From Patiria miniata (lineage: Eukaryota), in the NCBI RefSeq assembly GCF_015706575.1, contig NW_024037061.1, positions 979,897 to 1,043,896 of the forward strand: a stretch of DNA of 64,000 nucleotides, read 5' to 3'. Shown one piece after another: positions 5,138 through 60,169 of this stretch. Within the stretch, counting starts at the first letter, position 1. Every line of letters starts with the position of its first letter. The notes beneath the pieces are model-generated. The model ran no database searches and was not told the DNA's origin. It worked only from the letters and a program-made list of their open reading frames with translations. The position numbers and the translations under genes are program-made.

Positions 5138-5280
5138 GGCGGCGGTCAGCCAGATGTCATCCCCTCAATACGATGCTCTGACAAAATTGTTAAAAGTTGG
5201 GAAAAAATATTGAAATCACTTGCTTGAAGAACTTAATCACTTTGCATTTAATTATAAAGTTGAACACAGATATTGACTGG

Positions 5281-17924: not shown

Positions 17925-18056
17925 ATGGGCATTTTCAGTAACTGCCAGATATCTCTGGATCTCGATGCAATCCAAGTCCCTTTCAAAAAGAAACAACTTC
18001 TTAGGAAACAGGTGACCAGCAATGGAGGAGTCATCTCTTATATACTCACCAAGAAG
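17925..18056 (+). CDS. PARP4: PARP4 exon 1 with start codon; MGIFSNCQISLDLDAIQVPFKKKQLLRKQVTSNGGVISYILTKK
   Basis: Matches the human PARP4 N-terminus MVMGIFANCIFCLKV...QQQKKKLQ (BRCT start). First in-frame ATG after the stop at 17877. An acceptor-like cag at 17918 suggests an upstream non-coding exon. Donor GTAAGT. Confidence 0.8.
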
Positions 18057-18200
18057 GTAAGTCAGGGCGCCAGACTGTATTGACACAGTGACGAGTGGAT
18101 ATGTTTGGCATGATCAACGGATCTGCACTATCGTGATCTGCCGTCGACCGCACTTAAAATGGGTCATTAGTGAATCATTTTTGCTCACATTTTCTCCCAG

Positions 18201-18399
18201 ACCACATATCTCGTTGCCAGCAATGGGCCGAAGACCGCCGACTCCTACAAGGGCCGTACGGCCCAGAAGCAAGGGGTACCGATCGTCAGTGTGAGTTTCA
18301 TCGAGAGATGCGTGGAGGAGGGAAAGCTGCTGGATCATGATGACTTCCTGCTGGTGGGCAAGACTACAAGCATGCAGTTCAGCTCTGGTAAAATCACAA
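18201..18399 (+). CDS. PARP4: PARP4 exon 2 (BRCT domain)
   Basis: Acceptor tttctcccag, donor GTAAGT. Translation TTYLVASNGPKTADSYKGRTAQKQGVPIVSVSFIERCVEEGKLLDHDDFLLVGK is BRCT-like. Phase 0 to 1. Confidence 0.8.
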
Positions 18400-18881
18400 G
18401 TAAGTATGCGTTCTCTATGGGCTCTGTGCACATTTTTAATGCACTACTAGTCTTGGTTGCAGCCTTAGAGTCTAAATTCCTGGCAAGCAGGGTTATAAGC
18501 CACCAATGAATCAAATCCAGTCTACTCTTGGTAACTTCTCATACCCGAGAAACTCTTAGCTTACCACATATGCATGCATACATTGAATACAACACGCATG
18601 AGGTATGATCAGCATTTTTAGGGTCTATGCGCCAAAGTTCCCAAGATTGGATGTGATATGGTTAACTGGCGTTTGACTAAATTCTGGTTGAAACCAGGAT
18701 TTTCAATGTTGTTGGCTAAGTCGACTTTGGGACCAGACTACTGCGATAGGTCACATCGCTGGTTACTTGTACCAATAGTTTTGCTCATCTTAATTTATAA
18801 CAGGGAGCAAGACCCCCTCACCCCCATCCCCCCCCCCCCCCTCTTCAAATAATTGTACTGAATTTGACTGTTTGCCAATAG

Positions 18882-18948
18882 GTACTAAGACACAACAAGA
18901 GCCAAAGAAGCAAATGAAAGTGTCCTCCTTCAACATCAACAAGTTCAA
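18882..18948 (+). CDS. PARP4: PARP4 exon 3
   Basis: Acceptor tttgccaatag, donor GTGAGT. Phase 1 to 2. Encodes STKTQQEPKKQMKVSSFNINKF. Confidence 0.7.
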
Positions 18949-19318
18949 GTGAGTTTAGACCTTCATTTAACCAAGCAAGTTTCAAGTATAGTGCCAGGGT
19001 TTAAAATTCTGATGTCAGTTCCTTATAAGCTCCAACAAAAAGATGACAGTTAATCTTAAAGCTGTTGATTGAGGAACTGACAATTTTTTTTACAACTATT
19101 TATCACATTATATCCTTTATATTTTATTACCTCAAGACATGCCAGATAAACACAATTGAGAAAGATATTCTTTTAGGCATAACCTAAACAGCATGCCTGC
19201 ATTCAGCGTGGACAACCTTCATAAGTCTTCGTTCGCGAAGCCAAGCCATGATGATGAAACAAAGTTTTACGAAGTCAATACCATGTTTCATTTATTTAGT
19301 TATCTAAGACAATGTCGG

Positions 19319-19560
19319 GGAGTGTGGCCTAGTGGTTAGGGTTCATGACTCATATCAGAGAGTCAGGGGTTCAAATCCAGCTGCTGACCATATGTTGTGT
19401 CCATGGGCAAGCCACTTCACCTCAACTTGCCTCTTTCCACCAGGGAATATAAATGGGTACCGGCATTAGCTTGGGAGCAACCTGCGATGGACTGGCATCC
19501 CATCCAGGGGGATTAGAAATATTCTCAGTCGTTTCATACCAAGCAAAACGGAGATAAATG
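19319..19560 (+). mobile_element. SINE family B copy (PARP4 intron 3)
   Basis: gtgtggcctagtggttagggttcatgactc..ggggttcaaatccagctgctgaccatatgttgtgtccatgggcaagccacttcacc.. Confidence 0.7.
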
Positions 19561-19656
19561 CCTGATTGACCTAATTGGCTCGTGATGGACTTCATGTTTT
19601 ACTTTACTAAGACAAGGAGCCAAGTTTTTTAAAAGATGACTTTCTTTCCTACTTAG

Positions 19657-19735
19657 GGTCTGGCCATGGGGAAGCATTGATGCACCCGCTTATCCAGAGG
19701 AAAAGTATGAAGTTGCGAAGAGTGTTCTTCTTCAG
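19657..19735 (+). CDS. PARP4: PARP4 exon 4
   Basis: Acceptor ctttcctacttag, donor GTGAAC. Phase 2 to 0. Encodes KVWPWGSIDAPAYPEEKYEVAKSVLLQ. Confidence 0.7.
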
Positions 19736-20266
19736 GTGAACAAAATTAATTCTTATTTCTGCGTTATGAATGTTCACACCTCACACAAATTGGGGTCTAA
19801 AAATTTGTCGTGATATAAGAAGCAAGTGCCTTAATCAAACTTATTTCATTAACGTCATGGCATAATTGACCTATCACCGTTTTTGAGTTGGCCACGCCCC
19901 TTTGACAACCCTATGGAATTTTTGACTGCTAAGTTTTGTTTGTTTCAGATGTTGCGCATTTCGCGCCATTTGTATATCATGTAATTGGACAAAATTTCAC
20001 CAGCTGCGTTGACGTGATTCTAACGCGATAGGTCAATTACCTTCATTCTAGCTTTCAAGTTTGAACAGACTCATGATGACATCAGTATCTGAAGTTTCAT
20101 TGAGACATTTGCCCTCGAGACATTTGCCCTCGAGACATTTGCCATTGAGACATTTGCCAGAATTCATTCACTTTAACCAAAAATTAAACTGGAACGTTCA
20201 GAGAGAATATTTGAAAGAGACATTTAGAGCAAGCATTTTGACAAGTTGTTTTGATTTTTTTTCTAG

Positions 20267-20428
20267 AAAACGGACGTCAGGAGCAAAGATCGAATCTTCT
20301 ACCAACTGGAGTTGCACGTGGTGCCCGATGACGTCTTCAACCTCGCTAGGAGCTCGGAAGACACCGAGCCGGAGATTGCGTACACATTCCGGGTCTTTAC
20401 TCATCGTGGTGTACTGGACAACATCATG
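20267..20428 (+). CDS. PARP4: PARP4 exon 5
   Basis: Acceptor ttttttctag, donor GTAGGT. Phase 0 to 0. Encodes KTDVRSKDRIFYQLELHVVPDDVFNLARSSEDTEPEIAYTFRVFTHRGVLDNIM. Confidence 0.75.
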
Positions 20429-20559
20429 GTAGGTTGCATGGGCATCCATGTGATGCATCAGCACCAAATGAACATGAATTCATTTTTTTTTAAAAGAATT
20501 TAACAATAAACCACACAGGAAAACTGATCAGCGTCCCTTAAACAAAGACACTTGACAAA

Positions 20560-20665
20560 ATGAGGAACCACCAACATAGGGCTGGATAGCTCAGTTGGTA
20601 GAGCACCGGAACGGCAATCCGGAGGTTGCAGGTTCAAATCCAGCTCCAGTCAATTGCTCTGTTCA
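20560..20665 (+). mobile_element. tRNA-derived SINE, family A copy (PARP4 intron 5)
   Basis: Same head (ggaaccaccaacatagggctggatagctcag...) and tail (ccagtcaattgctctgttcaacttcaacaaa) as the other copies. Confidence 0.7.
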
Positions 20666-21014
20666 ACTTCAACAAAAACAAAAAGTAAGAATTGAAATAT
20701 TTATATATTCTGCAGAGCAGGGGCTTTCTAATGGTAAAAACATTGGCAGTACTGAGTTCAGTAACTGAAATATAGACCGCCAACTTAAATTGAAGATGTA
20801 AAATTAATTTTTGAGAAAATGTCATTGTATAATACCAGAATACTACAGTTGTATTGAAGTGAATGGACATATAAATCAGGACGAAAAAGGTTTCCAAGAT
20901 CATTGATAGAAAATAGATTGTATCTTTCTTGAAAATGTCTTTACGACAATGTTTATTTCGGTGTTTTAATTGAAGAATTAAAAAAAATTGCCTCTTTTTT
21001 CTTCAACTTTTCAG

Positions 21015-21164
21015 GATGAAGACTCGGGAACAAGAGAGGTACGCTACTGCAGTACCAGCGAGGAAGCCTTAGAGCTTTACAGCTTCCTCTATCAACAGCA
21101 ACACAACATGAGTAGGAGCAAGAAAGTGGCATCGCGTTGGATCGGCTCGCCCAAATACAGACAG
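21015..21164 (+). CDS. PARP4: PARP4 exon 6
   Basis: Acceptor cttcaacttttcag, donor GTATGC. Phase 0 to 0. Encodes DEDSGTREVRYCSTSEEALELYSFLYQQQHNMSRSKKVASRWIGSPKYRQ. Confidence 0.75.
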
Positions 21165-22310
21165 GTATGCGACCTGAGAGAGTCTCAAGGCTTTAGTGAA
21201 AGGGTGTAACAACATTTTTAAAGAGAGTTTGGAGTGGGACTTTCTTCTTCGGCAATACACAAAGCTGGTTTATTTTGAACTTCTTTTGAAATCTTCTTTA
21301 GTAATGTCCCTGAGCAAACCTGTTTACCGCAAGAGAGGATGTTTCCATTACAGGTGGAGTGATGGTTCTGTCAGTCAGGGTTCGACTTGAGCGGTAGCCC
21401 ACTAGCCAAATGCTAGTCAAAACAGCGGCCGGCTAGTCAAACTATTCCCTAAGTAGCCCGGCTGGCGAGTCAAAAAATTACTGGGATACGACAAAGATGA
21501 AAGGACAGGAAGAAATCATTAAATTCAGAAAGCAAACCTGTATCAATTTTGATCTTTTTTTTCCCTTCAATATATTCTTCCTTACTTTTCTTTTGTATTA
21601 GTCACCCAAATCATTCGACCATTGGTTTTGATGTCACAAGGCTTAGAACGTGGTACCTTAATTTTGAGTTACTAAATGTCCCTCTTGGGCAACTGGAATC
21701 AGTCAACATTTTCAACCGCATCTTTGTAATTTTATGTCTGTGGGATATATAAGAATAGCTGAATGTGCTCTTTCTCAGGCAGATGAAAAAGTGGTAAATG
21801 AAAAAACAAAATGTCATCACTACTTGTTTTGTGAGAAAATCCTCACTTTTGTGATAAACCTGCAGATTGTATTCCCTATTAACCCTCCTGCTGTTTGAAC
21901 AGTCACGGACAGTCAAACATTCCATCCACTTCCCCTGCCATGCTTTTTATATAGGCTAGTCACAAGCAGTCAGATCATATTGTGAGCAGGCACTTTGACT
22001 AGTCAAATTCAGTCAACAGACAAAAGCAGGAAACTGGTGGGCGCGCGCAGCTGGCTTGTCAATCACCTACAGTCAAAGCATAGCTGTATCAAGCTACATA
22101 AACAGTCACAGCCAGTCAATCCTGCTTTATGTAGGCTGGGAGCTCTTAACTGTTGAAAATAGTCACTAGATTGATTTTGACTGAAAGGACAACTTAATGT
22201 ATGTTTGCATAGGAATGTTTTAATAGGCATAGACCATTCATTTTGATGGTTTATTGGCGAGATGATAAGGAGAAGCATTACACTCAAATTCCTTCTTCTC
22301 TTACGTCCAG

Positions 22311-22451
22311 ACCCAGCTGAGCATCGGGGAGCACGAGGACGATGAGATGAGCGGAGAAGTAGCATCCTTGGTGGCCAGTCTGTGGAAGGAGACACTTGGA
22401 GAGCTGGAAGACATCTTAGCTGTTGACGTCAAGACGCTCACCGCGGAAAAG
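22311..22451 (+). CDS. PARP4: PARP4 exon 7 (PARP regulatory helical region)
   Basis: Acceptor ttctcttacgtccag, donor GTAGGA. Phase 0 to 0. Encodes TQLSIGEHEDDEMSGEVASLVASLWKETLGELEDILAVDVKTLTAEK. Confidence 0.75.
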
Positions 22452-23120
22452 GTAGGACGAGATGTTATTACACTTCATTCATATTCATGAGCCAAATGTG
22501 CTTCCCTCATTGGTTGATGTTCCAATAGGTCAGGGAACTAAAATTAGCTAAGGGCCAAGGATGAGTTTTAGACAAGTTGTGGACATTGCATCAGGTTTAA
22601 GTTGCAAGATTCTGAACAACTTCTCCACAATCTTCCCGCAATGAAGTTGTCAGTATTGATGAGTCAAGCAGTTGCTATTGAAAATTTCCCCAGAACATGT
22701 CCGGACAAATGCAGAGGCTTCTTTCGGACAAAGTGACCCGCAACTTGTCCTGAACTGACCCTGGATATAAATTGAGACGAACCCTAACCAACACGGGCGT
22801 ACTATTGCCCAGCAAGTCGGTCGTACTAGGGAATTACTAGATAAGCTCCTAGACTCCCAACTATGTAATTTCAGTTGCAATGGCTAATGAAGTTGCTGGT
22901 GGTACCATACTAAAACCTTTATGACAGACGACACTTACATAGTAGCTAATCCGCCTGCGCACGACGCACATAATACCTCTCAACTTTTCCTTAGTTTAAG
23001 ATATTAGTAGCTAAAGATTAGCTCCTACACTCCCAACAATGCAATTGCAAATGAGGTTGCTGGTGGTACCATACTAAAAACTTCTTCATTTGTCTCATGT
23101 TTTTGTTTTTCTGTCGACAG

Positions 23121-23318
23121 ATTTCCAAAGCCGAGAGTATCCTCTTACAAATCAGAAAGGCCTTGGATTCCCGAAGCGATGGGGCTGATGACGACGAGCG
23201 AGAGATTAGCATTGCGGAACTGACCCAGGAGTTCTACAGTCAGATACCTCACAAGACCCAGCAGAGGAAAGACATCAGGACCAAGAGCCTGATTGCCAAA
23301 AAGCAAGAGCTATGCCAG
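23121..23318 (+). CDS. PARP4: PARP4 exon 8 (PARP regulatory region)
   Basis: Acceptor ttttctgtcgacag, donor GTGATT. Phase 0 to 0. Encodes ISKAESILLQIRKALDSRSDGADDDEREISIAELTQEFYSQIPHKTQQRKDIRTKSLIAKKQELCQ. Confidence 0.75.
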
Positions 23319-23334
23319 GTGATTGTCTTCATAA

Positions 23335-23550
23335 GCATTAACCCGAACAGTGCTCAACCCATCAAACCCCAATGTTTTGTTGGAATTTGTCAGGATGGGT
23401 ACAGTACCCCTAAACTGACAGTCTTTTACATTGGGTTGGCACACCTCCAGAATCACAGTCAGAAACATGTGTGTGCAGTTTCCCATATGGTGTTGGAATT
23501 TGCCAGGATGGGTATGGTTCCTAGTAAATCATGCTAGGGAGTTAGGGTTC
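23335..23550 (+). repeat. Interspersed repeat family C copy (aacccatcaaaccccaatgttttgttggaatttgtcaggatgggtacag...)
   Basis: About 200 bp, nearly identical to 39940-40145. Confidence 0.7.
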
Positions 23551-23559
23551 AAGTTGTGC

Positions 23560-23890
23560 TAGTTGTTAGGGTTTGTGGCTCATGATGAGGGGGTCAGGGG
23601 TTCGAATTCCAGCTGCTGGCCATATGTTGTGTCCTTGGGCAAGCCACTTCACCTCCACTTGCCTCTCTCCACCCAGGAGTATAAATGGGTACCGGTATCA
23701 GCTGGGGAGTAACCTGCGATGGACTAGCTTCCCATCCAGGGAGGAATAGAAATCCAGCTGCTGGACATATGTTGTGTCCTTGGGCAAGCCACTTTGCCCC
23801 CACTTGCCTCTCTCCACCAGGGAATCAAAATGAGTACCGGCATTAACTGGGCAGTAGCCTGCGATGGACTGGCGTCCCATCCAGGGGGAA
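23560..23890 (+). mobile_element. Cluster of two to three tandem or nested SINE family B copies (PARP4 intron 8)
   Basis: ggggttcgaattccagctgctggccatatgttgtgtccttgggcaagccacttcacc.. is repeated. Confidence 0.7.
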
Positions 23891-24146
23891 CAGAAGTTTT
23901 GGTCCTCAAAAATCAAGCTGTTCGAGTTCTATAACTCATACCAATTTACTCATATTTCTTTTCAAAAAACGAATAAATTTCCTTTCGTTGATCATGTGAT
24001 GATGTAACAATCCTTTCTTAGCTTTGTTATACAATGTACACTTTTTCCAAGTTGTAAATTTTACTAGGCCTACATGAATATATGTGAATACATTTTGAAC
24101 AAAAATTATCTCCCACCCCCCTTTCTCGACTTTTTTGTTGCTTTAG

Positions 24147-40388: not shown

Positions 40389-43296
40389 GTAAAGAAGACA
40401 GAAGAGGAGTATGAAAAACCAAAAGAGAGGGCAATTATGTGGGGCAGTGCACAGCGCCATCGGCGACGTGAAATTCCAGATGAGGAATTGAAATTACAGG
40501 GCAATACTGATGGGATCACCTTTGCAGAGCCTGCTGATAGCTCACTTGCCGAAAGAAGTCCACATCGTTTTCCATCACCAGCCACAGGGTTTGCATTCTC
40601 TGCGCCTTCACCTGCGTCGCAGGCCGCTCATCCTGCACTTCAGGCCGGTGATCCCGCCGTCGCTGAGGCCTTGTCCTCAAGCTCTGTAAGCACTGGTTTC
40701 TTTACATCCACAGCACCTCGACAGGCTCGTGCCTCTAAGTTTAAATCGATGCTACCTCCTGCCAGACTTTATAAAGCAAAAGGAGTCTCACTTCAGGGAG
40801 AAGCCCCCACTGGAGGTCTGTTTGGAGGACCTTCTCTTCGCTCTGGCTTTGATGAGGGACTGACCCTAGGTCATCAACCCCCACTGGAAGCTGGTGTTCC
40901 AAAGCCTCAAACAGTAACCGGGTTTGGGGGAACTTCCGTAGCCCCTTCTTATGGTAGAGTGTTTGGTGCCCCTTTTTCTGGTGGTATGTTTGGAGGACCT
41001 TCCCTTCCCTCTGGCTTTGTTGAGGGACGGTCCCTGGGTCGTCAACCGCCACCGGAAGCTGGTATTCCAGAGCGTCAAGCAACAGTCGGGTTTGGGGGAA
41101 CTTCCCCAGCCCCTTCTTCTGGTGGACTGTTTGGAGCCCCTTTTTCTGGTGGTCTATTTGGAGGACCTTCCCTTCACTCTGGCTTTGATGAGGGACAAAC
41201 CCTAGGTCGTCAACCGCCATCGGAAGCTAGTATTCCAGAGTTTCAAACACAGTCTGGTGGTCTGTTTGGGAGACCTTCCCTTCACTCTCGCTTTGATGAG
41301 GAACGCCCCCGGGGTCTTCAAACCCGACTGAGAGCTGGTATTCGAGGACATGGTGAAACAACACTGAGCGACAATCTGTTGGAGGAAACTTCCGAATCCC
41401 CTTCGTCTGGTGGTCTGTTCGGCGAACCCGTGGTACCCCCGGTTGGTCAAAGGCCAATACCAGCATTTCGCAAGCAAATACCAACCACTAGCATGCTTAA
41501 GGGATCTCCCAAGCCCAAGTCTGATGCTGGAGTGGCACCAATTCAACCCCCATGCCGAGAAGCCAGAAAATCTGCCCCTCAAGAGCCAGCCAAGGGCGAT
41601 TTGCTCTCTAAACCCCCAGAAGAAGCAGCTATGCCTGAATCATTCAAGTCAAACTCTAAAGGAACCGTAGGATTTTCCGACAGAAAGCCACAACAAATCC
41701 GCCTTGAAGCAGGAGGAGTTTCTTCAGGGTTTAGTTTTGGAAGTGTCCCACAGCAGCAACAAACGGCTGGCGAGTTTGCGTCCACAAGAAAAAAGGATCT
41801 GTCAAAGCTACTTGGGATCTTACAGCCAGAGCAAACAGAACCCATTTTGCATGCACGGTCCATGGCATGGCCAATGCAAGCCGCTAATTCTCCTGCTAGG
41901 TTAACCGCTGCCCCGCCCCGTCGCTTTGCTGCCACTGCAGCACCATCCCCACCGCCTTCCCGTAACGCTGAGGTCAGTACATATTCTGCATCACCACCAC
42001 CTCCTCCAACTGCCTTCTTTGCGGGGATACCCCCTCCCCCACCACCCGCCCATGATGGTATAGCGCCCGGACAGCCCCCACTTCCTCTGGACATGATGAG
42101 ACGCACAATTCAAGAGGCTTTGGAGCGGTTTTCCAGTCCGTCTGGGCGGCCTCCCCCTCTGCCACATGCAGGAGCATCAAGCTTAGGGGGATTGTCTGGA
42201 AAAGCAACCCCCGCGACATTGGGTCAAGTACGACAGAGGCAAGAAATGGCTGACGATTTTGCGTCCACTAAAGTGTCTGCGTCAGCAGGACAGACCTCTG
42301 TCACCTCTGGTCTGTTTGGGAGCTTACAGTCACAGCAATCAGAAACCACATTGCATGCACAGTCATTGGCATTGCCAATGCAAGCCACCAGTCAGTCCGC
42401 TGGGTCACCCCCTCCTGTCCCGCCCTGTCCTCGTCTTCCCCTGCCCCGTCGTCCACCCCCACGGCTTCCCTTTAGACCTAGACCACGTGATTTATATGAT
42501 GAATCACCACCACCCCCTCCACCTGCCCGTTCAAGGATGCCCCCTCCCCTTCCCCCACCACTTCCTGGTAAAGAAAAAGCACCCCGACAACTAGGAAAGG
42601 GAATTCAAGAGCCTCAGCTTGGACAGCCTGCTGCTGCGCCTCTGCCACGTGCAAGACATTTTAATACAAAAAGTTACTCGGCACTACTCGGGCTTGAGAG
42701 TACGGCTGAAATACCAGATCACGCAAGGGTTTCGAGAAGCAGCAATAAAGAAAGCTCAACACCCGTGGAGAGTAACAAAGTTAGAATAAGACAGGAGCTC
42801 TCGTCAGACATGCGGAGAAACCTGAAGAAAGATGCAGCCGAAGTTCCGCCACAGTTTTTCGATACTATAATGGCGTTCGGGAGTGATGATGCTGAGGAGA
42901 CATATACATGTATGGCTGCCGATGAGAGTCATAAGCCAAGTGATGAAGGATATGCTCCTGCAAAAGTCCGGGGAAGTTTGAAGAAGAAAAAGAAGAAAGC
43001 ATTTTTTGCCGTGTCAGAGGACCGTGGTAAAGATGTTGACGAGGAGCAGATCGGTAAAGAAACTGAGGAAATCCCAAGTCTCCAAAAGGCTTCCCTGATT
43101 CAAGATGCCAGAAGCCAACCGGTTGTAGAGCTCTGCCGTATGTCTCCAAAGATGAGACCTAGAGGCATAGGGCCTAAAGTCAGTCCAAAGCCTCCACCAC
43201 TTAGCCACACTAAGGACATCGTCAGTGATTTGTTGGGTGAGATAGAGATAAGCACAGCCATCAGTGCACCACTGGGCTTTGGCACAACAGAGTCAA
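40389..43296 (+). CDS. PARP4: PARP4 giant exon 32 (about 969 codons): proline-rich, low-complexity C-terminal region with four tandem repeats of about 57 aa (GGLFGGPSL.SGF.EG..LG.QPP.EAG.P) and PPPPPP stretches
   Basis: Acceptor tcatttttgtag. Continuous ORF from 40389. The in-frame stop at 43326 is bypassed by a perfect donor TCAA|GTAAGT at 43296/43297 (phase 1), which matches the phase needed by downstream exons. Confidence 0.7.
40800..41340 (+). repeat. PARP4: Coding tandem repeat (four units of about 171 bp, 57 aa) inside PARP4 giant exon 32
   Basis: GGLFGGPSLRSGFDEGLTLGHQPPLEAGVPKPQTVTGFGGTSVAPSYGRVFGAPFS / GGMFGGPSLPSGFVEGRSLGRQPPPEAGIPERQATVGFGGTSPAPSSGGLFGAPFS / GGLFGGPSLHSGFDEGQTLGRQPPSEASIPEFQTQSGGLFGRPSLHSRFDEE.. 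Confidence 0.8.
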
Positions 43297-44078
43297 GTAA
43301 GTTACTCTTTGCTTTACCTTCTAGTTAACCCATATGGGCATATTGAGTGTTTGTGGCGAAAGGTAACAGCTTTTTTTTTTCTCCGGTCATCTGGCGTGGT
43401 CACCTGGTACAAGGGGGTAGGAGGTTTGGGGGAAGTAGGATCTTTCTGGGGGGAGTACTGTTCAAAGGGAATGATCATGGGCACTTTCAGACAATAGGTG
43501 ACGCTCTTCATGGTGCTACAATTGCCAATGTTTTGGCAACGTTAAAAAGGGCACTCCTGGGAAAAAAAGGTTCTTGAAAGGTATATTTGAAAAGAAATCT
43601 GATACACTTACTTGCTCAGAATGCTTGGCGCATTTGAACTTTGAATTCTCCAGACCAAAGACACTGTTGCTAATCGCATGATTCGGGGCAAGCTCTTGCA
43701 TAGTTACGTAAGAGACACTCAGCACCAATGCATTGTTCACACTGGGTGGGAATGGCACAAAGACACCAGATCATGCCGGAGCTGGGGGTTGCTAGCGTAA
43801 GGCTTGCCCCGAATCATCTGATATAGTAACAGTCTCTTGGGTCGGGAGAGCGCAAAGTTTAAAAGGTGCAAAGCATTGGATTAAGTCAGCATTTCAGATT
43901 TTATTCAAATTTCACTCACAAATGGCTTATTTGAGTGCATGAAGTTTCAAAGTCCAAAAGGGAAATGATAGTTTTATAACATTTTGAATTACGAGGTTCA
44001 CCTACATTCAAAGAAACACATTTCACAAAACAATGTATGCTTGTATTCAATGATGTTGTTCTGTAATTTATGAAACAG

Positions 44079-44146: not shown

Positions 44147-44916
44147 GTAAGTTGATGGATATTATCTTTACTTTTCATTGCTATTATTATTTTCATTTTT
44201 TTGGGGTATAAAACAGTGACGTGAATGCAAAGTTGTCGACGTAAGTTTATAGGTTGCCATAATTGCAAAAAATTTCAATTCAACAGTACAGTGTCTCACT
44301 CTTTGTGGAGGTAAAGTTACAACAATGCTGTAGTAATGTGATTTTACTGGGTGTGTTCGTTAGCTCACCTGGGTCAACACGGGTTAGCCCCGTGCCGTTC
44401 GATTAGCTCTGATGTCATTCTCGTGGCTCACCCGGGCCAGCCACCACAGACCCTGCTCGTGGAGCAGAGTCACTGGTGGAAGTACGTCACGCATGCGTTG
44501 TTCATTCCCTAGAAACGGACAAATATGGCGGCCGGACAGCGAAAATTTCATGCGGACTAAAAGTTGACTCGATTTGAAGTCTAATGACAATGATTGAGCT
44601 CATTGCGACTTTTCAGGCTGTAATTTCAACCCAACTTTTTTGCGTTTTGAAACGGACTGAAGAGCAGTAAATCTCAAACTAAGACCCAATCGGATATGGG
44701 CGTTTTGTCAGCGGCTACGCCACGGCTTAAGGCTTCACGTGAGGATCCTGATGGCCCGCGGTGCAACGTTCCATTAGCTGGGCTGTCGTGGCTGACCCGT
44801 CTACCTTCTACGCAGAGGGGGAGACTGTTCACTCAGAAAAAAATGATTTTGTTACAGTGCACTCATTGGCTGAAGAATACAGCCTAACGCCTCACTGTGA
44901 ACTCTTGTTAAAACAG

Positions 44917-45016
44917 GACGGATCATGGGAGTTGTTCATGGGCATCAAAGAGCACGTCGGAGTTAGACTGAAGCCGGTCAAGAACATGCTGAAAGAAGCT
45001 GGCGTGAATTCACTCG
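44917..45016 (+). CDS. PARP4: PARP4 candidate exon 34 (DGSWELFMGIKEHVGVRLKPVKNMLKEAGVNSL)
   Basis: Acceptor cttgttaaaacag, donor GTGAGC. Phase 0 to 1, compatible with the terminal exon. Confidence 0.45.
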
Positions 45017-45377
45017 GTGAGCAGAATACATTAGTCATCATGGGCCTTTTCTTACAACGTTTGCAAAAATTCAAAAACGGGGGAAAAGTTTTGACACAAT
45101 TTGTTCTCCCTACTATCTGACTCTGGCCACTGAGGATTATCATTGGTTATACATAACGGTACACTGGTTCTATCTCCAGGGGTAAACAAAGGACTTTTTT
45201 AAGGGTGTTTTCACGGACTCCTAATCCGTGAAAATTTAGTTAACTGTAATTTCAAGGGAAAATGGCTCTTTAACGAATGTTTAAGGGATGAAAATGTTCC
45301 ATGATTAAACTCCATCGATTCTCTGTTAATGCAAGTGTAACTTATTGCATACCTTGTTTGCTGTTGCTCTTAAACAG

Positions 45378-45622
45378 GCGAAGACGTTGCCTTGAAGATC
45401 CAGAAGCTGGTGGCCACCTATCTGGTCATCCTGTACCTGAACCACTTCTTGGCACAGTCGCCAACGATGAGCAGGCAGGAGAGAGAACGGATCACCCAGG
45501 CCGTTCTGAATGCGGAGAGGTTCGTCAGTCAGGCTGAGGCGGAGTATCCATCCCTGGCACGTCGCCTGGAGCTCGGAAGCAGCTGGGACGATGTCTGCCA
45601 GGACATCTTCAAGATGATGTAA
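45378..45622 (+). CDS. PARP4: PARP4 terminal coding exon, stop TAA at 45620-45622 (..EDVALKIQKLVATYLVILYLNHFLAQSPTMSRQERERITQAVLNAERFVSQAEAEYPSLARRLELGSSWDDVCQDIFKMM*)
   Basis: Acceptor ttgctcttaaacag with phase 1 in. Long clean ORF ending in a stop. Phase-compatible with both the giant exon and candidate exon 34. Confidence 0.7.
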
Positions 45623-49250: not shown

Positions 49251-50639
49251 AATTATACGGCCTATACTGCAGCTTCCCCCTTTTAATGGCACTTTAGCCT
49301 GTTGCAATTCGCCTAAATATTCGAGAAATGTGGCCTGGGCAAACACAACTGGTTGAAAATTAGCAGTGAATTTCCAAGTTTTGAAAATCTAAGTTAATCG
49401 GAGATGTTCTAACCTGATTTGGCAGCATGAGCTTCGTTGCTCGCATGTTGCTGGTATTTACCTCATCAGTGGGTCTCATATTTAATGATGGTGGTCCAAC
49501 AGTTGCTGTAATGTGCAGGATATTCCTTATGAAAATCTTGGAGAAGTTTATTAACTAAAGAGTAAGTAAAATTGGCCTGATTTTGTTTTGCATATTTTTC
49601 TGGACTCGAGGTCCCAGTCTGGGGTAAGATAAGTGACACTGGGGAAAATACACTCTGTGAATTAAGCACGATCTTTAATTTAGCTACTCGATTCAGCTAA
49701 AAAAAAAAAGATGAAATTCTCAATTCAGGCACGATTTGGTGTTAATAAACAAAGATGAGATTTTACCTTTTTTGTGCTTAGGATGTTACATCAGATCCCG
49801 GTAACGGTATTCCAAATGTCTGTGTTGTATGTTGAGCTGATCGACAGGATAATATCAATTCATATACCAAAGCCTCGGAGACTTGTATTCCATAAGCAGC
49901 TTAGTGAGAAGGTCTGCAGGCAGATTTTCCATCGGAGCATTATAGCTACGACGTTTACACTATCATATTCCACTGCAGTTTCTTCTCCGATTTAAAACAT
50001 CTCATCGTTTGACCAATGCAAGTTCACGCCAATTGGCGGTGATATCCCTACACGAAACACATTCATCATACACACAATTCTCCGCAAGGCATTTTTTTTT
50101 TGTCAAGGGCCAACTAAGGAATTCCCAGTATTTTCATCTTGACTAAACTTAAACAACTGAACTAAGAACCCGCGTTTTTCCCCATTTGCTCAGCATTGCT
50201 TCATAGCATGATTACGTAAAATCGCCTCTCTTTAAAACTAACAATTATGCCACGAGGAATGCGTGCCTTTTCACCATCAGTCGTGGCAGAAAGGAAGGAA
50301 CTGATTGAAAGGCTAGGAATGTATCTTTCGGTTTTGACCAATATGTGGAACGCTTGGAATTTACACAGATTTTATTTAAATCGACATGCTGACATCATCA
50401 TAGTGATCGGACAATCTCTCTCGTTGTAGTGGGGAAGATAGGGGAAATATTCGGGGGAATTGTGCCTTTGATGATATGGCATTTGGCACGCAGTCAGAGA
50501 ATGTCTTACGAAAATATTTGGCTATAGGGCCATCGAAGATTTGTTCTTTGAAAAAAATATAAGTAGAATATCAATCAATTTCAAAATTTCAAAATGGCTG
50601 CCATTCTACCTATATTTTTTTCAAAGTACAAATCTGCGA

Positions 50640-50790
50640 TAGCCCTATGGCCAAATATCTTTGTCATGCAAGGGCTGATCGGGGGGGGGGGCAACATGCC
50701 CCCCAACCTCCCCCCCCCCCCCCAGAAAACCCGGACCAAATTCGTGTTTAAAGTGACGTCGCAATAAAGGGCAGGCACTGCCGCTAAATA
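50640..50790. repeat. Second copy of the G/C-homopolymer element left end (gcaagggctgatcgggggggggg..cccccc..aaa), adjacent to a 150-bp hairpin at 50500-50650
   Basis: Homologous to 46865-46990. The hairpin is atatttggctatagggccatcgaagatttg.../...caaatctgcgatagccctatggccaaatat. Confidence 0.5.
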
Positions 50791-50929
50791 AATAGCTCAC
50801 TGCTCGCGACTATGTCGTATGTTGTCACTCAGTCTGCTTACTCGGCACTGATAAACTCAACACATCGGTTTTGCCTATTATACCTTGGTTGCCGATATTA
50901 TAAGGACATGTACTAGGCTAAAAAAATCG

Positions 50930-51330
50930 TGGGAAAATATCGTTGAAAAAGTAGAAAACGAACGTCCACACTAACATATATATACCGGTTTCGTTTATCT
51001 ACCATAAGAAAGAATTTCGGGGTATAAAGTAATATTGGTCCTCAAAAATCGAGCCGTTGTGGAGCGCTAGCCGTCATTCCAGTCAAATCAGCAACAGGCA
51101 AAACTCAATATTTATAAAAGTGTGGGACCTGAACAGTGAATTGAATATTTTTATGCGGCGCCAGTCTTTTGTTGACGTCTTGCTCAAAATTCGACGCATA
51201 AAATACGTGCATCCACAATGTCCAAACCCCTGCAATGCCAGTTGTAAAGAAACAGGGTTCCAAAACCTTCCTATAACTGAAAAGCACGCGGACATTTTAT
51301 GGTTTTCCAGTGTCTAAGAATTTCAGGTAT
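50930..51330. repeat. Interspersed repeat; second copy at 53775-54330 (..atatcgttgaaaaagtagaaaa.gaacg.c.aca..aatcgagccgttg.gag..agc.gtcattcca.tca...gtgtgggacc...gcggcgccagtcttttgttgac)
   Basis: Shared blocks at both loci. The motif gcggcgccagtcttttg also occurs at 10780. Confidence 0.55.
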
Positions 51331-52113
51331 TTAATAAGTAAACAATGTAAAACGTGATTGATTAAACAAAGTCTGGCCGAATGTCCACCTTAAACGTTCC
51401 TCTTGACGCATGTAGTAGACTGATACGAGTCCGTTTTTTTTAACGTCAATCGTTGTTCAATCACCGGCTGCATGAGCGGAGTTCATATCCAATTCCAGAC
51501 TTGAACAAAGACTGCCATATCTTGACTTTCCATTCTGTCAGTGATATATCGATCGGTGCCCGCCTATCAATGCCGTGATTATAGCCCTATATCGGTGAAG
51601 AGCAAAAGTCGTTTATTATGTACAGCCCCTCAGCGCAAATTCCATTATTTTGACAATTCATCGACGTTTTCCCAGCGAATGTAATTATCTTTGATTTCAA
51701 CCACCGAGCCACAGTTTCATGCCAGTGCAAATAATTAATGTAAGGAGACTATAGAGAGCCTGTTCCACAATTCCATCTTAGCTCATCACACCGATGCAGG
51801 TTACTGAAGCGATCAAACCTTTAAGCATTATGCCTATACCAATTTATCTTCTGTAGAAACAAAGCTAACGACTGAACAGAATGATGAGGCAAGATAGCTG
51901 AATGAAAACACATAAAGACATACCTCAATGTTCCAAAGAAAATTCAAATCAACAGCAGCAGAAAACACGAATAGGCCAATACTTCGAACTCTGCAGAAAT
52001 CACTTAATGTAGGCTATATGTAATTGTGCGACTCAATGTTTGACATGCAGTGACTACTTTATATTTAGCTCGAAAGGAGATTTAAAGTGTTTTTCGCCTG
52101 TAATGTTACATTT

Positions 52114-52878
52114 TTAGGCAGAGTAGTAAACACATCGAGTGCTGACCTCCTGAAACTTCTCCGGATCATCAGCGCGATTTGCATCATTGAGCTGACACAG
52201 TTTCTGTTCTTGTTTGGTGCCCTTGATGTTGAAGGAGCGACATCCCGGTTCCTTCAGGCAGGCCGAGGCGCATCTCGAGGCGCTCTTGGTGACGAATTCT
52301 CTGATGACATGATCGACGAGGCACGAGTTTAGTTGCTGCTGCTGGGCGTTGCCTTGAGAGAAGCCCTGGTGCTGAATGTGTGCTGGTGATCGCAGGACGC
52401 ACATAGCTTTGGGTGGTTCTGTGCACGGGACGTCATTCCATCCTTGGGTTGTTGAACCAAAATAGGCGCAGTAATCACTAGAAGGGCTGGAACCATCCCT
52501 GATGCTGGGTTCTCCGGGCCTCCAGTTTGAGTACGCCTGCCCGACCTCCTGGCCCTCGCACCTCCATGCTCTATCGATGAATTTGCAACCAACCCACAAC
52601 CAACTTGGTCCTGCGTTCTTTGTCGTGGTTGCCATGAATGTATTCTCCTGTTCTGAGTGAGGAGCGGCCATCACCGCACCCATATCACGGCAACTAGCCT
52701 GGCCTTCGTCCCAGCTCGCCCCCTGGCCGGTGAGACGGTAGCAAGATGAGCCCCAAGGAATCCATAACGGCGGGCAGTATACGACAGCCGAAGATGGGGT
52801 GCAGAAATCGAAACAAAGCATCACAGCAAATGCGAAACTGACGCCTAAAACTGCGGCTTGACCTCCGTCACAGTACAT
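52114..52878 (-). CDS. Intronless secreted C-type lectin domain protein with a C-terminal PAN/apple-like domain (254 aa)
   Basis: N-terminal hydrophobic signal peptide. The CTLD core is CPPLWIPWGSSCYRL..ASW..ASC..MGAVMAAPHSEQENTF..WLWVGC...W.C...YSNWRPGEP....CAYF....WNDVPC...KAMCV. The PAN-like part is C..ASAC...C.SFN......C.L. Confidence 0.7.
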   Translation of the reverse strand: MYCDGGQAAVLGVSFAFAVMLCFDFCTPSSAVVYCPPLWIPWGSSCYRLTGQGASWDEGQASCRDMGAVMAAPHSEQENTFMATTTKNAGPSWLWVGCKFIDRAWRCEGQEVGQAYSNWRPGEPSIRDGSSPSSDYCAYFGSTTQGWNDVPCTEPPKAMCVLRSPAHIQHQGFSQGNAQQQQLNSCLVDHVIREFVTKSASRCASACLKEPGCRSFNIKGTKQEQKLCQLNDANRADDPEKFQEVSTRCVYYSA

Positions 52879-55800
52879 CTCGGAATGAAAGATGTTGGTC
52901 GTCCGAAAGAAGTCACAAAATGATTTGAATTAATATCAACGTTTGACAAAGTCGTTGTAGGCGAAATCCAGTGCAATATACGATGTTCAATATGGGCTGT
53001 GTAGTTCTGCCGCTCAATGTCTCCTTTCTCGTGACTCCAACGTCACAGGTATCGTCACTCTATATTAGTGCGCTTACCCAGCACTGAATTCAACTCATCG
53101 GGTCTGCCTATACAGCCAATTTACTGCCGATGTAATTATGTATATATATAAGGACAGGTATTTGACGTCCTCGTCCTCGAAATTTAATAAGCCTTATTAA
53201 GCCGCCCGCAGGTCGACCTTGCGACGACACAGAGCAGTCGGCGACTGACTTTTCAGGATCAAGCTACGCCTGAGCTACAACCATCGGTATAAAAGTATCG
53301 GTCGGTCGCTGATTTTCGGTTTGCGACCTGATTGTAGCTGCGACGATATTAATCCGATCGGCATCATCCGGTGTCGTATGAAAATCCGCGACCAGTATTA
53401 TCATACTAATGCATGCGCAATACTACCAGCGAGTCCATATATTTCATGAAGTCGGATATTCACGCTCATCGCATTTCACTGTGTAGCCAATCAACATGCG
53501 GCAGAAATGGTCGAATGAACAGACGTGGCCGTGGATGGCCGTGGATGGCCGCTTGATTGTTATCAACACGCACAGCGACATTTTGAAGACGCCGCATGAA
53601 CACGTGTTGCGGAATCGTTCTCGCGTCGCGGGTGACATTAACATGGTTGTGTTTATTGGTTGTGAATCACACAATTTCTCAGTTTTTGTGACCCAAATCG
53701 CAGGTCGACCCGAGGTTACCGTTAACTTAAAGGGGCAGTTCGAGAGAAAGCGCCAATTAATTTAGGCTCCAAAAATTGCAAAGGGAAATATATCGTTGAA
53801 AAAGTAGAAAATGAACGACTACACCAACACAATACCTTCATCTGACTACCAGAAGATATCTCGGTGTACAGAGTAATCGAGCCGTTGGAGTTCTAGCAGT
53901 CATTCCAATCATACATGTTTCTTTTCAATGCTTTCTTCAAACGCGTATGGGTATGGCTATGTTCGATATGGCTCGCTATAATGGATACCGTACGAGTAGA
54001 CGCAGGCCTGCGTGCGGGACCATTTTATGAAGTGCAATTTACTTGGGGAGAAAAACATACGTCGGTGAAGGGTGAAACACAATATTCAGTCGACTCTCGT
54101 TAATACAAACACTAGTAATACAAATCCTGGTTATAGCAAACATAAAGCCTTGGTCCCACGGTGCATTTATGTGTACAGTGAATAGGACCGGCACTCCACT
54201 TAATACAAAATTCTGATACAACAAACGTTTTGGCTGGGTAAGTGTGGGACCCGACACATGGCATTGAATCTCCGCAGTAAATTGGAACATTTAATGCGGC
54301 GCCAGTCTTTTGTTGACTGTCTGGCTGCATAATCGATCTACTTCTACTTCTATGCTGCTACTCGTTTACAGCCTTTTCAGCAACTTAACGAGGACTGTGG
54401 TGTCCTGTCTCAAATGGTGGACACTTGTGCTCGAAATACGTACACACAAGGCCAAAACTGTACGCCAGATGGACAGAAAATGAGTAACTACTTAGTTTTC
54501 TCCATAATTGAAAGACCTTATTGCATTTTATGGCTTTCTTGTAACAATAACTTTGGTAAAGTAAACAACCTTAAAAAATCAATTTTGTTTTAGAAATTTG
54601 GTCGAACGTTACCCCTTTAACGTATCCTCGACCGACTAGAACTACTAACGTCGATCGATGTACAATCACTCGGTTCGTTGGACTTGCCGCTACGGGAAAG
54701 CAATAAACAGTTTCTGGTCACACTCTTGGTAACAATAGTTATTATACGGTCAATAATTCAAATCAAACCATGCACGATTGACCAATCATTAAAATACACG
54801 ACAGCACGTGGTGACCTGCGCCATCATGAGCGCCGACCGCCGGTTTTTATTGTGGGTTTCCCTTATTACAGACGAAATGTTTAGGGGAGCGTGAATACAT
54901 GTATATTGTGTATCAATATTCCAAGTGACGCAAAATTAAATTAAACGCTGCCTTTTACCGAGTCGCTGGTTATACGAAACAAGACTTGGCAAGTAAAGTA
55001 ATGTTCCCAGACTTTTCATGCATGCAGTCAATGGGTCAGAATTAGCATATTCATTGCCTCTACGAGTAATCATATACGATAGCACTGCCCAGCTCCCTTC
55101 AACAGGCTTTAACCATTCTAAGTCTCAAGTAACAGTCAGATAGGTATAGGAGACTTGGACGGCCTTATGGTACTATAGTGAATAAATGAAAATCTCATGG
55201 TTGTTTTATTCTAATCTTGCCATTCTCCTCATTTTTGTGGCCACTCCTTAGCTTATTGGTGGACAGTAAAATAAATGGAAACGGCGCCACCAAGAGCCCA
55301 ATCAACCCCAAGATTTGTTCGAATCGTTTCATGTAATGACGCATTCTTTGCGCCGACGCATAGTACTAGCACACGTGCAATGCTTTAATTTGCCGAATAA
55401 AGGATGCGTCTTTTCATTGTCACGACTTCAACCACGGACTTTCGGCCGAGTATCCACCGCCCCATCGATGTGTGCTGGTTTACTAAAAGGTGAAGGAAAA
55501 AAAAGTTCAGACGGAAACCCATAGGTCGGAAAATATCGCAGGCATGCTCTTCAATAATGCATGCGCATGATGAAAGATGTAGAATCTACTGTCTGTGTTC
55601 GATTTTTTTTCTTTCGATTTTGTTCCTCTTTCTAGCAATACAAAACTTATTCAATTTTCAATGCGACGTCGACCAAAATGATCCACCCATAAGTAGTGAA
55701 CATAGTTGAAATAATTCGCCCGTGTATAAGTCACTTCTCGCAGGGTTATCTGGTTTCCGTCCCCATCAGAATCGATAATGTAGGGACCGGGAACCAGTCT

Positions 55801-57731: not shown

Positions 57732-57823
57732 ATCATCTCTTCTTCCAAGTGAATTTCTTCCGAGCTCCGGCTTGCCCTGGCTTCTTTCTCTCCTTGACGC
57801 GGGGGTCTCTCGTCAAAAGACCA
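57732..57823 (-). CDS. MRPS9: MRPS9 terminal exon ((A)[29 protein letters not shown]), stop at 57734-57732
   Basis: Near-identical to the human MRPS9 C-terminus [30 protein letters not shown]. Acceptor tttcttaag. Phase 1 in. Confidence 0.85.
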
Positions 57824-58139
57824 GCTTAAGAAAAAAACAAGGGTGAAAATGTGTGTCCTTGAGCAGTACACTTTATCCAAACTTACAAGTAATACTCCAA
57901 GCATAGCTACACTCTATCATCCTTTTGGTATTCTAATGTGTATAGCTTTAAAGAAGTTAAAGCATTACGTTAATAAGCATCTGTAGTACATTGCATTGCG
58001 CTGTATTTATTCCTGAAAAATCCACAAAACCCTTATTTGATTATTTGAAAGCATGAGGTGAATTTCCCTTTTGAAATCAAGGGCCCTTTTCATACCAGGC
58101 TTTCGATGTTTATCTTTGACTGAGCCCTATGTTTCTGGT

Positions 58140-58340
58140 GAATCCCTTAAAGGGAATGTACATCATTGGCTTTTGCTGTAATTTTCGGAAATGAACTATT
58201 TTGAGGGGTAAGTGTAATAGATCAAGTATTGTTTCACTGACTTGTTTGAGGTTTTGTGTTAAACAAATACTGGAAAAACCAAGAAAAACATTAATGTTCA
58301 AGTAGTCTGGTTCCCTGTTGTATATTCCCCTTAAGGCAAT
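58140..58340. mobile_element. Partial copy of TTAA-MITE family 2
   Basis: Begins cttaaagggaatgtacatcattggcttttgctgtaattttcggaaatgaa.., homologous to 16536 onward. Confidence 0.55.
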
Positions 58341-58841
58341 CAGTTACACCACAGGAGGCCAGTCCAACCGGCACTGCTTCATTCCTGCTGGGTCTACCTT
58401 TTTGAAACCCCATACATGTTACATGTACAGAGGTCTGACAAATTCATGATTTCCGTTGTTTGTGCATCAATTTCAGTGGTCAAAGAAAGAAAACATGGTT
58501 TAATTACCCGACAAAAACGAATTCGACATTACATTTAATATTTAATTTATGAAAAATCTAAGTGCGTTTAGACCACTAAAGAATGATTCAGGTATGCGAA
58601 ACAAGTCGTTAAGTCAAGCGATATGAATTGTTCCCTGCTGGTGGTAGGCATTCATCTGGTGCTGAACTGCCGAAAGGAGATAACAGCTTAAAAGAGATAA
58701 GAAAGCCTGGTTCAGTCTTGAAGAAAAACCCGAATATAAGACCACTAGTTGGGTTTTCTTTTCAAAGAGGATTCACGGCATAAAAGTGGCATAACCGGAC
58801 TGTGTAATAGCTAAATTCTCCCACCAATAATCTCAACTCAC

Positions 58842-59011
58842 CTTGCCTCATCTTCTCGACCGTTGATTCATCTACAAAGCTCCGCAGGGCGCGCGCTGTG
58901 GCGAGCCGCACCGCCCCCGACTGGCCCGACTTGCCCCCGCCCCTCACTGTGCAATCCAGATCAAACCGGTTCAACATGCCCAAGAAATGAAACGGGAACA
59001 TGACCTGTATT
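58842..59011 (-). CDS. MRPS9: MRPS9 exon ((R)[56 protein letters not shown])
   Basis: Matches human MRPS9 [44 protein letters not shown]..WMRQ. Acceptor tgtgtacag, chosen so that the spacing to the YF motif equals the human spacing. Donor GTGAGT. Phase 2 to 1. Confidence 0.8.
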
Positions 59012-59716
59012 CTGTACACAAATTAATAACACTTTGAAAATTACTAATTATTTGGAAAAATATTAACAAGATTTTGGTTAACAAAATTTTAATCCTTGAC
59101 AATTGAGCCGTTGGAGTACTAGTCTTGATTAAAACTCTAGTGCTGGTCTTGATGGCACATATTGAACACCATACTTTAGATTTATACCTAATTTATAGCG
59201 ATTTGTGATAAATGCTACATGACTATAACATTACTGCACCTGTTTTGCCTCCATTTACCAGTTTACAAACTTTTCATTAACATGTTTCCGAATTGTTACA
59301 AACAATGTTTGTTAAGTATTTAATTTATTTTGTTAAAATTTGGTAGTTATTTTTTATGGGGAAACTTAGGGGGCTTATTTTGGGTCATGTTTTGGGGGAC
59401 AGACATATACAAAAACATACGCATGCGCATCGATTGAAACAAAATCGGTGTTCCGAACACTGTCGGCAAGAGTGTATTTTATGACGACAGCATTTGGTCA
59501 ATTAGTATTAGTCAATTATTTTTGGTCAATTATTATTGGTCAATTTGCGGGGACAGACAGACAGACAGACACACAGACAGACCAACCAACTGACCGACCA
59601 CCAAGTGACTATAGGCAGGCCCTCTGGGACCAGCAAAATTCTATATTCATATAGGAATAAATTTAAAAAATAATTCCTTTCAGTACATTAAAAGAAAAAG
59701 AAACACCCTTGATATA

Positions 59717-59868
59717 CCTGTGTTGTACTACTGAGAAGTAGTCGAGAAAGCTATGTCCGTTGACGGTAACCTGCCCATTTCCCTGGTCCCTAACAATCAC
59801 GTTGGCTTCAGCCTCCTTCCGTGTGCCGTGCCCTTTAGCGAAGGCTCGGCCCGTCTCGTCAAATTGGA
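59717..59868 (-). CDS. MRPS9: MRPS9 exon (uS9 core: IQFDETGRAFAKGHGTRKEAEANVIVRDQGNGQVTVNGHSFLDYFSVVQH)
   Basis: Matches the uS9 signature G.G.RK.A.A.V....G.G.I.VNG.....YF and human MRPS9 (..GKISVNGVDYLLYFPVTQD). Acceptor tag|ATC, donor GTATAT. Phase 0 to 2. Confidence 0.75.
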
Positions 59869-60169
59869 TCTAATGCACATGAAATAAAAGTAACAAATTG
59901 AAGTCTGACCTGTTAATCACCTGCCATCTCTAAATAGATTCTAGGATCACAAAGTTCTATTTTGTTTTCACCATTTTACTCCAATGGAAAGGATGTGACT
60001 TTGTGTTCAATTTTGTAAACGCTTAGCAAATATTTTAAACGTTTAGCAATTCACAAAGGCTGACATGTGATCGACATGATAAAGCAACTATGATTTGGCA
60101 TAATATATAGTGGGCAGTCATTGAAAAAGTCAAACCTAACTACGCAAAGAAACTGAGCAATAACTAAAT

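Follow-up and report, generated by a model that had tools for sequence, protein, structure and literature searches.

What does the second-longest open reading frame (ORF) in a 64-kb stretch of the Patiria miniata genome encode, and how did it come to lack introns? The stretch, called the window below, is 64,000 nucleotides of contig NW_024037061.1 (positions 979,897 to 1,043,896 of the forward strand). The ORF lies on its minus strand at positions 52114 to 52878 and runs from an ATG through 254 codons to a stop codon, exactly the position and length given in an original prediction made from the letters of this DNA. We conclude with high confidence that it is an intronless lectin gene whose product joins a C-type lectin-like domain, or CTLD, to a C-terminal PAN/apple domain and is predicted to be secreted. 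That confidence covers the structural and gene-level description; function is graded separately below.

Gene model and domain architecture

The translated ORF is 100% identical, at full coverage, to a Patiria miniata protein (XP_038059037.1 in RefSeq, A0A914A5A7 in UniProt) that bears the automatic name "C-type lectin domain family 6 member A-like." Both databases already hold the gene model and the two domains, and the protein is annotated and uncharacterised. A motif scan places an in-frame stop codon 51 nt before the ATG, and in tblastn comparisons 18 of 18 homologues are colinear with the ORF with no interruption, indicating that the coding sequence is a single exon. The tblastn comparisons with homologues found no further CTLD or PAN coding segment in the 64-kb window. 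The features of the gene, with the evidence for each, are as follows.

52114..52878, minus strand: complete single-exon coding sequence, 254 amino acids plus stop (ORF list, RefSeq identity, colinear homologues)
52786..52878, minus strand: predicted signal-peptide region, amino acids 1-31 (hydropathy scan)
52399..52776, minus strand: CTLD, amino acids 35-160, a long-form domain in which 8 Cys are conserved (Pfam, PDB matches, Foldseek)
52504-52512, minus strand: EPS triplet, amino acids 123-125 (motif mapping)
52432-52440, minus strand: WND motif (motif mapping)
52324..52398, minus strand: Gln-rich linker, amino acids 161-185 (alignment of 12 family sequences, per-domain identity)
52132..52323, minus strand: PAN/apple domain, amino acids 186-249, six Cys (Pfam, PAN-only model, Foldseek)
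51612..51617, minus strand: candidate polyadenylation signal AATAAA, 496 nt past the stop codon (consensus match alone)
53144..53150, minus strand: candidate core promoter, a TATA-like element that precedes the ATG by 272 nt (consensus match alone)

Both Pfam domains expected by the original prediction score above their curated cut-offs, well outside what chance would give. Lectin_C (PF00059) matches amino acids 54-161 with an E value of 2.3e-12 (48 bits versus a cut-off of 22.6), and a search of the CTLD against PDB sequences returned 164 CTLD chains at E<=0.01, including DEC-205, the second carbohydrate-recognition domain (CRD) of Endo180 (CRD2), DCIR/DCIR2, MGL, and CD23. In a full-length AlphaFold2 (AF2) model built from 12 family sequences, the CTLD and PAN cores have predicted local distance difference test (pLDDT) scores of ~70-79. 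Foldseek matched this model to 507 PDB entries at E<=0.001, and the best 50 listed are all C-type lectin-like domains. Its template-modeling (TM) score is 0.77 to the CRD of ASGR1 (E 1.7e-8) and also 0.77 to that of MGL; CEL-I of sea cucumber is among the fold matches. The predicted motifs WLWVGC, WxDxxC, and GEP are found as WLWVGC (amino acids 93-98, with WVGC at the WIGL position), WNDVPC (147-152), and GEPS (122-125). Six cysteines, C35, C46, C63, C137, C152, and C160, are invariant in family alignments of 12 and 27 sequences and, judging from their positions, would form the two core disulfide pairs and the N-terminal long-form pair. An additional cysteine pair, C98 and C107, is likewise conserved.

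For the C-terminal domain, Pfam PAN_1 (PF00024) matches amino acids 184-253 with an E value of 2.7e-8 (34 bits versus a cut-off of 21.4). A PAN-type cysteine pattern had been predicted, and the six cysteines (186, 203, 207, 213, 228, and 249) are indeed invariant among the closest homologues in the 12-sequence alignment and in a PAN-only alignment; across 27 of 27 relatives the four inner ones remain invariant, and at C186 and C249 some of the distant relatives differ. Six cysteines arranged in this way are the known pattern of apple domains. A PAN-only AF2 model reaches a pLDDT of 83.3 and a predicted TM score of 0.76, and its best 20 Foldseek matches in the PDB are all PAN/apple modules (probability 0.95-1.00, TM 0.5-0.69), among them the HGF N domain, the apple domains of factor XI and prekallikrein, and an Eimeria PAN module, with Sarcocystis SML-2 and TgMIC4 apple-5 lower in the ranking. 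A PAN profile searched against PDB sequences found a factor XI apple domain and MIC4 at E values of 0.05-0.1, below the threshold of significance, and a PAN-only profile searched against a database of 5.8 billion proteins gave no match at E<=0.001, not even to family members, for which the word index and the shortness of the profile are probably responsible. Since the Pfam profiles and the fold searches supply independent evidence from sequence and from fold, both domain assignments stand.

The N terminus carries the sole strongly hydrophobic segment of the protein (amino acids 8-25) in a hydropathy scan of the whole sequence, which found no other candidate for a membrane-spanning segment. This stretch fits a signal peptide, as had been predicted. 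Candidate cleavage sites follow Ala18 and Ala31, both with small residues at -3 and -1. Across the family the leader region has only 7 to 60% sequence identity, yet it is always hydrophobic. Downstream of it, all 14 cysteines are conserved in the alignment of 12 family sequences, and the linker between the two domains (amino acids 161-185) is poorly conserved, with a pLDDT of <50. Most family members also have a cysteine right after the leader (C26) and another in the linker, in a YCF context. In the two Patiria paralogues the linker cysteine is lost and an extra Cys22 is gained (52813-52815 in the window copy), a pattern that hints at a compensating disulfide rearrangement and at signal cleavage before residue 22.

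Family divergence, the sugar site, and proposed function

Echinoderms show a huge expansion of CTLD proteins. A word-indexed protein search returned 18 relatives of the lectin, and an exhaustive HMMER scan returned 3260 proteins at E<=0.001, mostly giant multi-CTLD proteins. About 25 clusters of the HMMER matches (at 50% identity) are ~250-amino-acid proteins that match end to end. Lectin_C is present in 27 of 27 full-length relatives, and PAN_1 in 22 of the 27. Where the source of a family member is named, it is P. miniata (with genes on several chromosomes), Acanthaster planci (on several scaffolds), or Asterias amurensis; the remaining members stem from ENA contigs. The paralogue XP_038059832.1, 83% identical to the lectin, lies on the same 19.3-Mb scaffold outside the window, and one P. 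miniata member carries an automatic name taken from a Patiria pectinifera lectin. A CTLD followed by a PAN domain also occurs in larger echinoderm proteins, namely XP_071953361.1 of the crinoid Antedon mediterranea (4 CTLDs and a C-terminal PAN), XP_038044167.1 of P. miniata (2 CTLDs and a PAN), and XP_033624642.1 of Asterias rubens (12 CTLDs with an internal PAN). The terminal unit of the crinoid protein aligns with amino acids 147-252 of the lectin at 30% identity, with CQLND and C-x-YY in common, so the CTLD-PAN combination dates far back among echinoderms.

How fast does this family evolve? The lectin had been called rapidly evolving, a description that suits one part of it. Ratios of nonsynonymous to synonymous substitution rates (dN/dS), estimated by the Nei-Gojobori method for three Acanthaster paralogues, are 0.33-0.44 overall, never exceeding 1. 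They are highest in the long-loop (sugar-binding) region (0.61-0.73) and the linker (0.57-0.67), whereas the PAN domain (0.19-0.26) and the CTLD core (0.17-0.31) are under purifying selection. This contrast indicates a constrained scaffold with a labile recognition loop. The PAN domain is the best conserved part of the protein: mean pairwise identity within the family is 59% for the PAN domain versus 48% for the CTLD, and between the two Patiria paralogues 94% versus 82.5%. The triplet of the sugar site reads EPS in the window lectin, EPG in its paralogue, EPN in relatives from ENA, and QPD in Acanthaster; the second motif appears as WND, WTD, WLD, WFD, or MDD across the family.

Aligned with Endo180 CRD2, a CRD whose sugar-bound structure has been solved, the EPS triplet corresponds to EPN, Asp135 (two residues before Cys137) to the loop Glu, and WND to WND. 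The sugar-binding loop is 5 residues longer than that of Endo180 CRD2, and both Patiria paralogues carry an insertion of 5-6 residues between the triplet and Cys137. Mammalian DCIR has a natural EPS triplet, and its CRD retains binding to glycans of mannose and fucose (PMC3679074). The primary Ca2+/sugar site thus appears largely retained in a non-canonical form, and Ca2+-dependent binding is plausible from the residues present.

As a whole, the best explanation of these results is a soluble lectin for glycan recognition, in which the CTLD is a variable head and the conserved PAN domain a second binding module; we consider it moderately probable. Its functional part, soluble glycan recognition as such, we infer and hold to be evenly poised between right and wrong. 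In this scheme the protein would be exported and act as a soluble humoral factor of the agglutinin or opsonin type. The CTLD would serve as a variable glycan-recognition head, and the conserved PAN/apple domain might offer a second, constant surface, either for carbohydrate, as in apicomplexan apple lectins, or for protein binding or oligomerisation, as in factor XI. One molecule could then bridge a variable glycan ligand and a constant partner.

Several points weigh against this explanation. The n-region of the leader has no basic residue, and cleavage could fall after either Ala18 or Ala31. With a mean pLDDT of 57.6, the full-length AF2 model is poor and serves for the CTLD core only, its binding loop (amino acids 110-134) having a pLDDT of <50, and the Foldseek E values of the PAN model are modest, 0.026 or worse, though all the top matches are PAN/apple modules. 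Ca2+-dependent sugar binding could be lost through the replacement of Asn by Ser and of Glu by Asp together with the insertion in the loop, and the 83%-identical paralogue, with its EPG, is more degenerate still. An immune role would be assigned to the lectin by analogy, and we found no paper that mentions XP_038059037, XP_038059832, or A0A914A5A7.

The strongest alternative takes up the altered sugar site. CTLDs that bind protein are known from snake-venom snaclecs and natural killer cell receptors, and apple domains that act as lectins from SML-2 and MIC4. Accordingly, the CTLDs of the lectin and of its EPG paralogue could be blind to sugar via Ca2+ and bind protein instead, any lectin activity residing in the PAN/apple domain. 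Both paralogues depart from the canonical triplet while distant relatives keep EPN or QPD, and the loop insertion and the change of the loop Glu to Asp point in the same direction, as do the better conservation of the PAN domain between the paralogues and the presence of galactose-binding apple lectins among the structural matches of the PAN model. However, the site keeps WND, both Glu and Pro in its triplet, and the loop carboxylate, the EPS CRD of DCIR is a sugar binder, and the best sequence matches of the CTLD (Endo180 CRD2, DCIR2, and MGL) are sugar-binding CRDs. We regard this alternative as rather unlikely.

Absence of introns

How did the lectin gene come to be intronless? All 7 intact asteroid genomic copies that were inspected, tandem or dispersed, are intron-free. 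A 20-kb locus of Acanthaster planci (DF978536.1) holds four tandem CTLD-PAN copies in one orientation, ~4 kb apart, within positions 5328-18464. Three are intact (5328-6119, 10001-10783, and 17676-18464) and one, at ~13323-14103, is frameshifted near 13830; nucleotide likeness between the copies ends no more than ~50 nt from the coding sequence. The Acanthaster single-ORF genes measure 783, 789, 744, 765, and 807 nt and encode 260, 262, 247, 254, and 268 amino acids, respectively, and the array has a further intact copy of 263 amino acids. Three of these copies (744, 765, and 807 nt) are dispersed among unrelated spliced genes. An asteroid-like contig in ENA carries another single-ORF copy, of 777 nt and 258 amino acids. 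In contrast, the crinoid gene for a multi-CTLD protein with a PAN domain, the one spliced relative found, spans 7.8 kb and at least 7 exons, with the last CTLD split over two exons and the PAN domain on an exon of its own. The intron-free state is an old, family-wide trait, compatible with ancient retroposition or with intron loss. In the Acanthaster locus we also noted a 43-codon fragment at 4153-4281, and that the intact copy at 5328-6119 is missing from the gene list of the locus.

The original prediction had called the gene retrogene-like. At the level of the family the term may be apt, with intronless asteroid copies next to a spliced crinoid relative, but the lectin copy itself has neither a poly(A) remnant nor short target-site duplications. 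Could it nevertheless be a recent processed retrocopy of a spliced lectin gene, possibly untranscribed or decaying into a pseudogene? Its intronless coding sequence, its position as a single copy between unrelated housekeeping-type genes, and the degenerate direct repeats on both sides of it would fit such an origin. Yet the inspected relatives of the same architecture are all intronless themselves, including tandem arrays, which arise by DNA duplication, so no spliced parent is needed for the lectin copy. No poly(A) tract follows the AATAAA, the nearest A8 run lying 176 nt further on. No short target-site duplications flank the gene; the repeats there are degenerate elements of 170-270 nt with 69-85% identity, ~0.9-1.0 kb away, unlike the short abutting duplications of a retrocopy. 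The ORF is intact, with all structural cysteines kept, and the family is under purifying selection. We therefore reject a recent retrocopy, on the missing hallmarks at the lectin copy and the family-wide lack of introns, as very improbable.

Even less probable is that the ORF belongs as a single exon to some larger spliced gene, for example, a read-through or extension from the MRPS9-type gene or from an upstream multi-CTLD gene. An AG after a pyrimidine-rich stretch directly before the ATG would allow an intron in the 5' untranslated region, and the MRPS9-type gene does lie upstream on the same strand, but the terminal exon of that gene ends with its own stop at ~57.73 kb, which lies upstream of the lectin by ~4.85 kb, homologues from at least 3 species share the start and end positions of the ORF, and the upstream in-frame stop, the exact RefSeq identity, and the lack of another CTLD or PAN coding segment in the window all speak for a self-contained gene.

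A spliced multi-CTLD gene with a PAN domain, like that of crinoids, may have given rise to the intron-free state, either by ancient retroposition or by loss of introns. A bolder scenario, which we put forward tentatively and consider doubtful, is that the CTLD-PAN family, so far seen in asteroids only, was founded when a spliced receptor gene with multiple CTLDs had its terminal CTLD-PAN unit retroposed long ago, and then spread by tandem and dispersed duplication. It would have diversified into a set of humoral recognition molecules whose triplet toggles among EPN, QPD, EPS, and EPG, while the invariant PAN domain would dock every member onto a single shared partner, for instance, a receptor on coelomocytes or a clotting or matrix component. 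If true, sea stars would possess a modular opsonin system with a "variable head, constant handle" design.

Known systems and genomic surroundings

How does this lectin compare with proteins of known function? To our knowledge, the characterised soluble lectins of echinoderms consist of CTLDs only, and the PAN module would then be the feature that distinguishes the CTLD-PAN family from them. They are small secreted CTLD proteins, as the Patiria lectin is predicted to be, including the GalNAc/Tn-specific lectin of Patiria pectinifera, echinoidin, CEL-I, and a galactose-binding, coelomocyte-aggregating C-type lectin (PMC8713890). Secreted single-CTLD proteins are also known in echinoderm skeletons (PMC5460417), but a role as a skeletal (biomineralisation) matrix lectin, comparable to sea-urchin spicule matrix proteins or brittle-star skeletal C-type lectins, is extremely improbable and was rejected on the P. 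miniata skeletal proteome, which is essentially devoid of C-type lectins (its two marginal matches have 2 CTLDs or CUB and FN3 domains; PMC5460417), and the lectin has no acidic or Pro/Gly-rich repeats and carries a PAN domain, which spicule matrix proteins lack.

The echinoderm multi-CTLD "macrophage mannose receptor-like" proteins with a PAN domain have the same CTLD-then-PAN adjacency. They are larger, with 2-12 CTLDs, and the crinoid gene is spliced, whereas the Patiria lectin is a minimal, intron-free version with one CTLD and one PAN domain. DCIR (CLEC4A), with group II CRDs in general, and Endo180 CRD2 share the long-form CTLD fold, and DCIR the EPS triplet as well. DCIR and Endo180 are receptors in the membrane, with tails for signalling or endocytosis and no PAN domain, and the Patiria lectin differs from them in its extra cysteine pair (C98 and C107) and longer binding loop. 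The apple domains of factor XI and prekallikrein, the HGF N domain, SML-2, and TgMIC4 have the same fold as the modelled PAN domain, at only 13-20% identity to it; in those proteins it is repeated in tandem or combined with kringle, protease, or further adhesin modules rather than with a CTLD.

In nematodes, proteins that combine a CTLD with a PAN/CW domain are a recognised class, and class IV of the Caenorhabditis elegans clec genes is described as "1-2 CTLD + 1-2 CW" (PMC5297725). They are secreted, as the Patiria lectin is predicted to be, and like it join a CTLD to a module of the PAN superfamily, both proposed to bind carbohydrate or protein (PMC5297725). Their module is of the CW/PAN_3 subtype, in contrast to the six-Cys, apple-type PAN_1 of the Patiria lectin, and there is no evidence that the combination descends from a common ancestor in the two groups, whereas the echinoderm unit is common to crinoid and asteroid multi-CTLD proteins. 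A literature search found no paper that combines C-type lectin, PAN domain, and echinoderm, and the text of the P. miniata single-cell atlas contains nothing on the lectin gene.

For general biology the lectin carries little weight, its modules being known and their combination documented in nematodes. Its value for echinoderm immunology is modest: the family is compact, intron-free, and easily expressed, with a conserved PAN domain and a variable triplet. Work on sea stars, such as studies of sea-star wasting, could draw on it for a tractable set of candidate molecules of humoral recognition, and it offers a small case study of an intron-free family set against spliced multi-domain relatives.

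The neighbours of the lectin gene had been named as PARP4, with the lectin immediately downstream, and MRPS9 on the opposite strand. Both identities are borne out and the orientation of MRPS9 is not: along the window the order is a PARP4-type gene on the plus strand, the lectin on the minus strand, and an MRPS9-type gene also on the minus strand, upstream of the lectin, so that the PARP4-type gene is the opposite-strand, convergent neighbour. The PARP4-type gene spans ~18174-33274 and 44752-45619, with exons in the order BRCT (18.2-18.5 kb), PARP catalytic (24.5-26.4 kb), VIT (27.4-28.5 kb), and VWA (29.3-31.2 kb), which is the domain arrangement of PARP4. Two conserved-looking exons without a Pfam match, at 44752-45619 on the plus strand, are probably its C-terminal exons. 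Between these and the VWA exons lies an uninterrupted ORF of 963 amino acids (40437-43328, plus strand), also without a Pfam match, with a GC content of ~49-50% versus a background of ~40%. Its translation is rich in Pro, Gly, and Ser and carries repeated "GGLFGGPSLxSGFDEGxTLGRQPPxEAGxP" units and poly-Pro tracts. This ORF may be a giant low-complexity exon of the PARP4-type gene. The MRPS9-type gene (minus strand, ~57733-59869) has Ribosomal_S9 exons at 59666-59869 and 58765-59022.

Repeats are found on both sides of the lectin gene and elsewhere in the window. Two pairs of degenerate direct repeats bracket the gene, 50914-51085 versus 53763-53911 (69% over 176 nt) and 51134-51184 versus 54275-54326 (85% over 52 nt). 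They are colinear, lie ~0.9-1.0 kb beyond each end of the ORF, and have just two copies in the window; no counterpart was found around the Acanthaster or ENA lectin copies when the repeats were examined as possible relics of a tandem array. Most simply they are two copies of an interspersed element, although they could be the scar of an old duplication unit. ARAGORN reported three tRNA-Ala(GGC)-like elements, at 5274-5345 (minus strand), 20580-20652 (plus strand), and 28108-28180 (plus strand), two of them inside the PARP4-type gene. ORF translations near these elements have a GWIAQLVEHRNGNPEVAGSNPA-type peptide in common, suggesting that they are copies of a tRNA-derived short interspersed nuclear element and not real tRNA genes. 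Finally, downstream of the 3' region of the lectin gene, positions 50508-50664 form a near-perfect hairpin with 78-nt inverted arms, 83% complementary and separated by 1 nt, which may be a foldback element or one resembling a miniature inverted-repeat transposable element.

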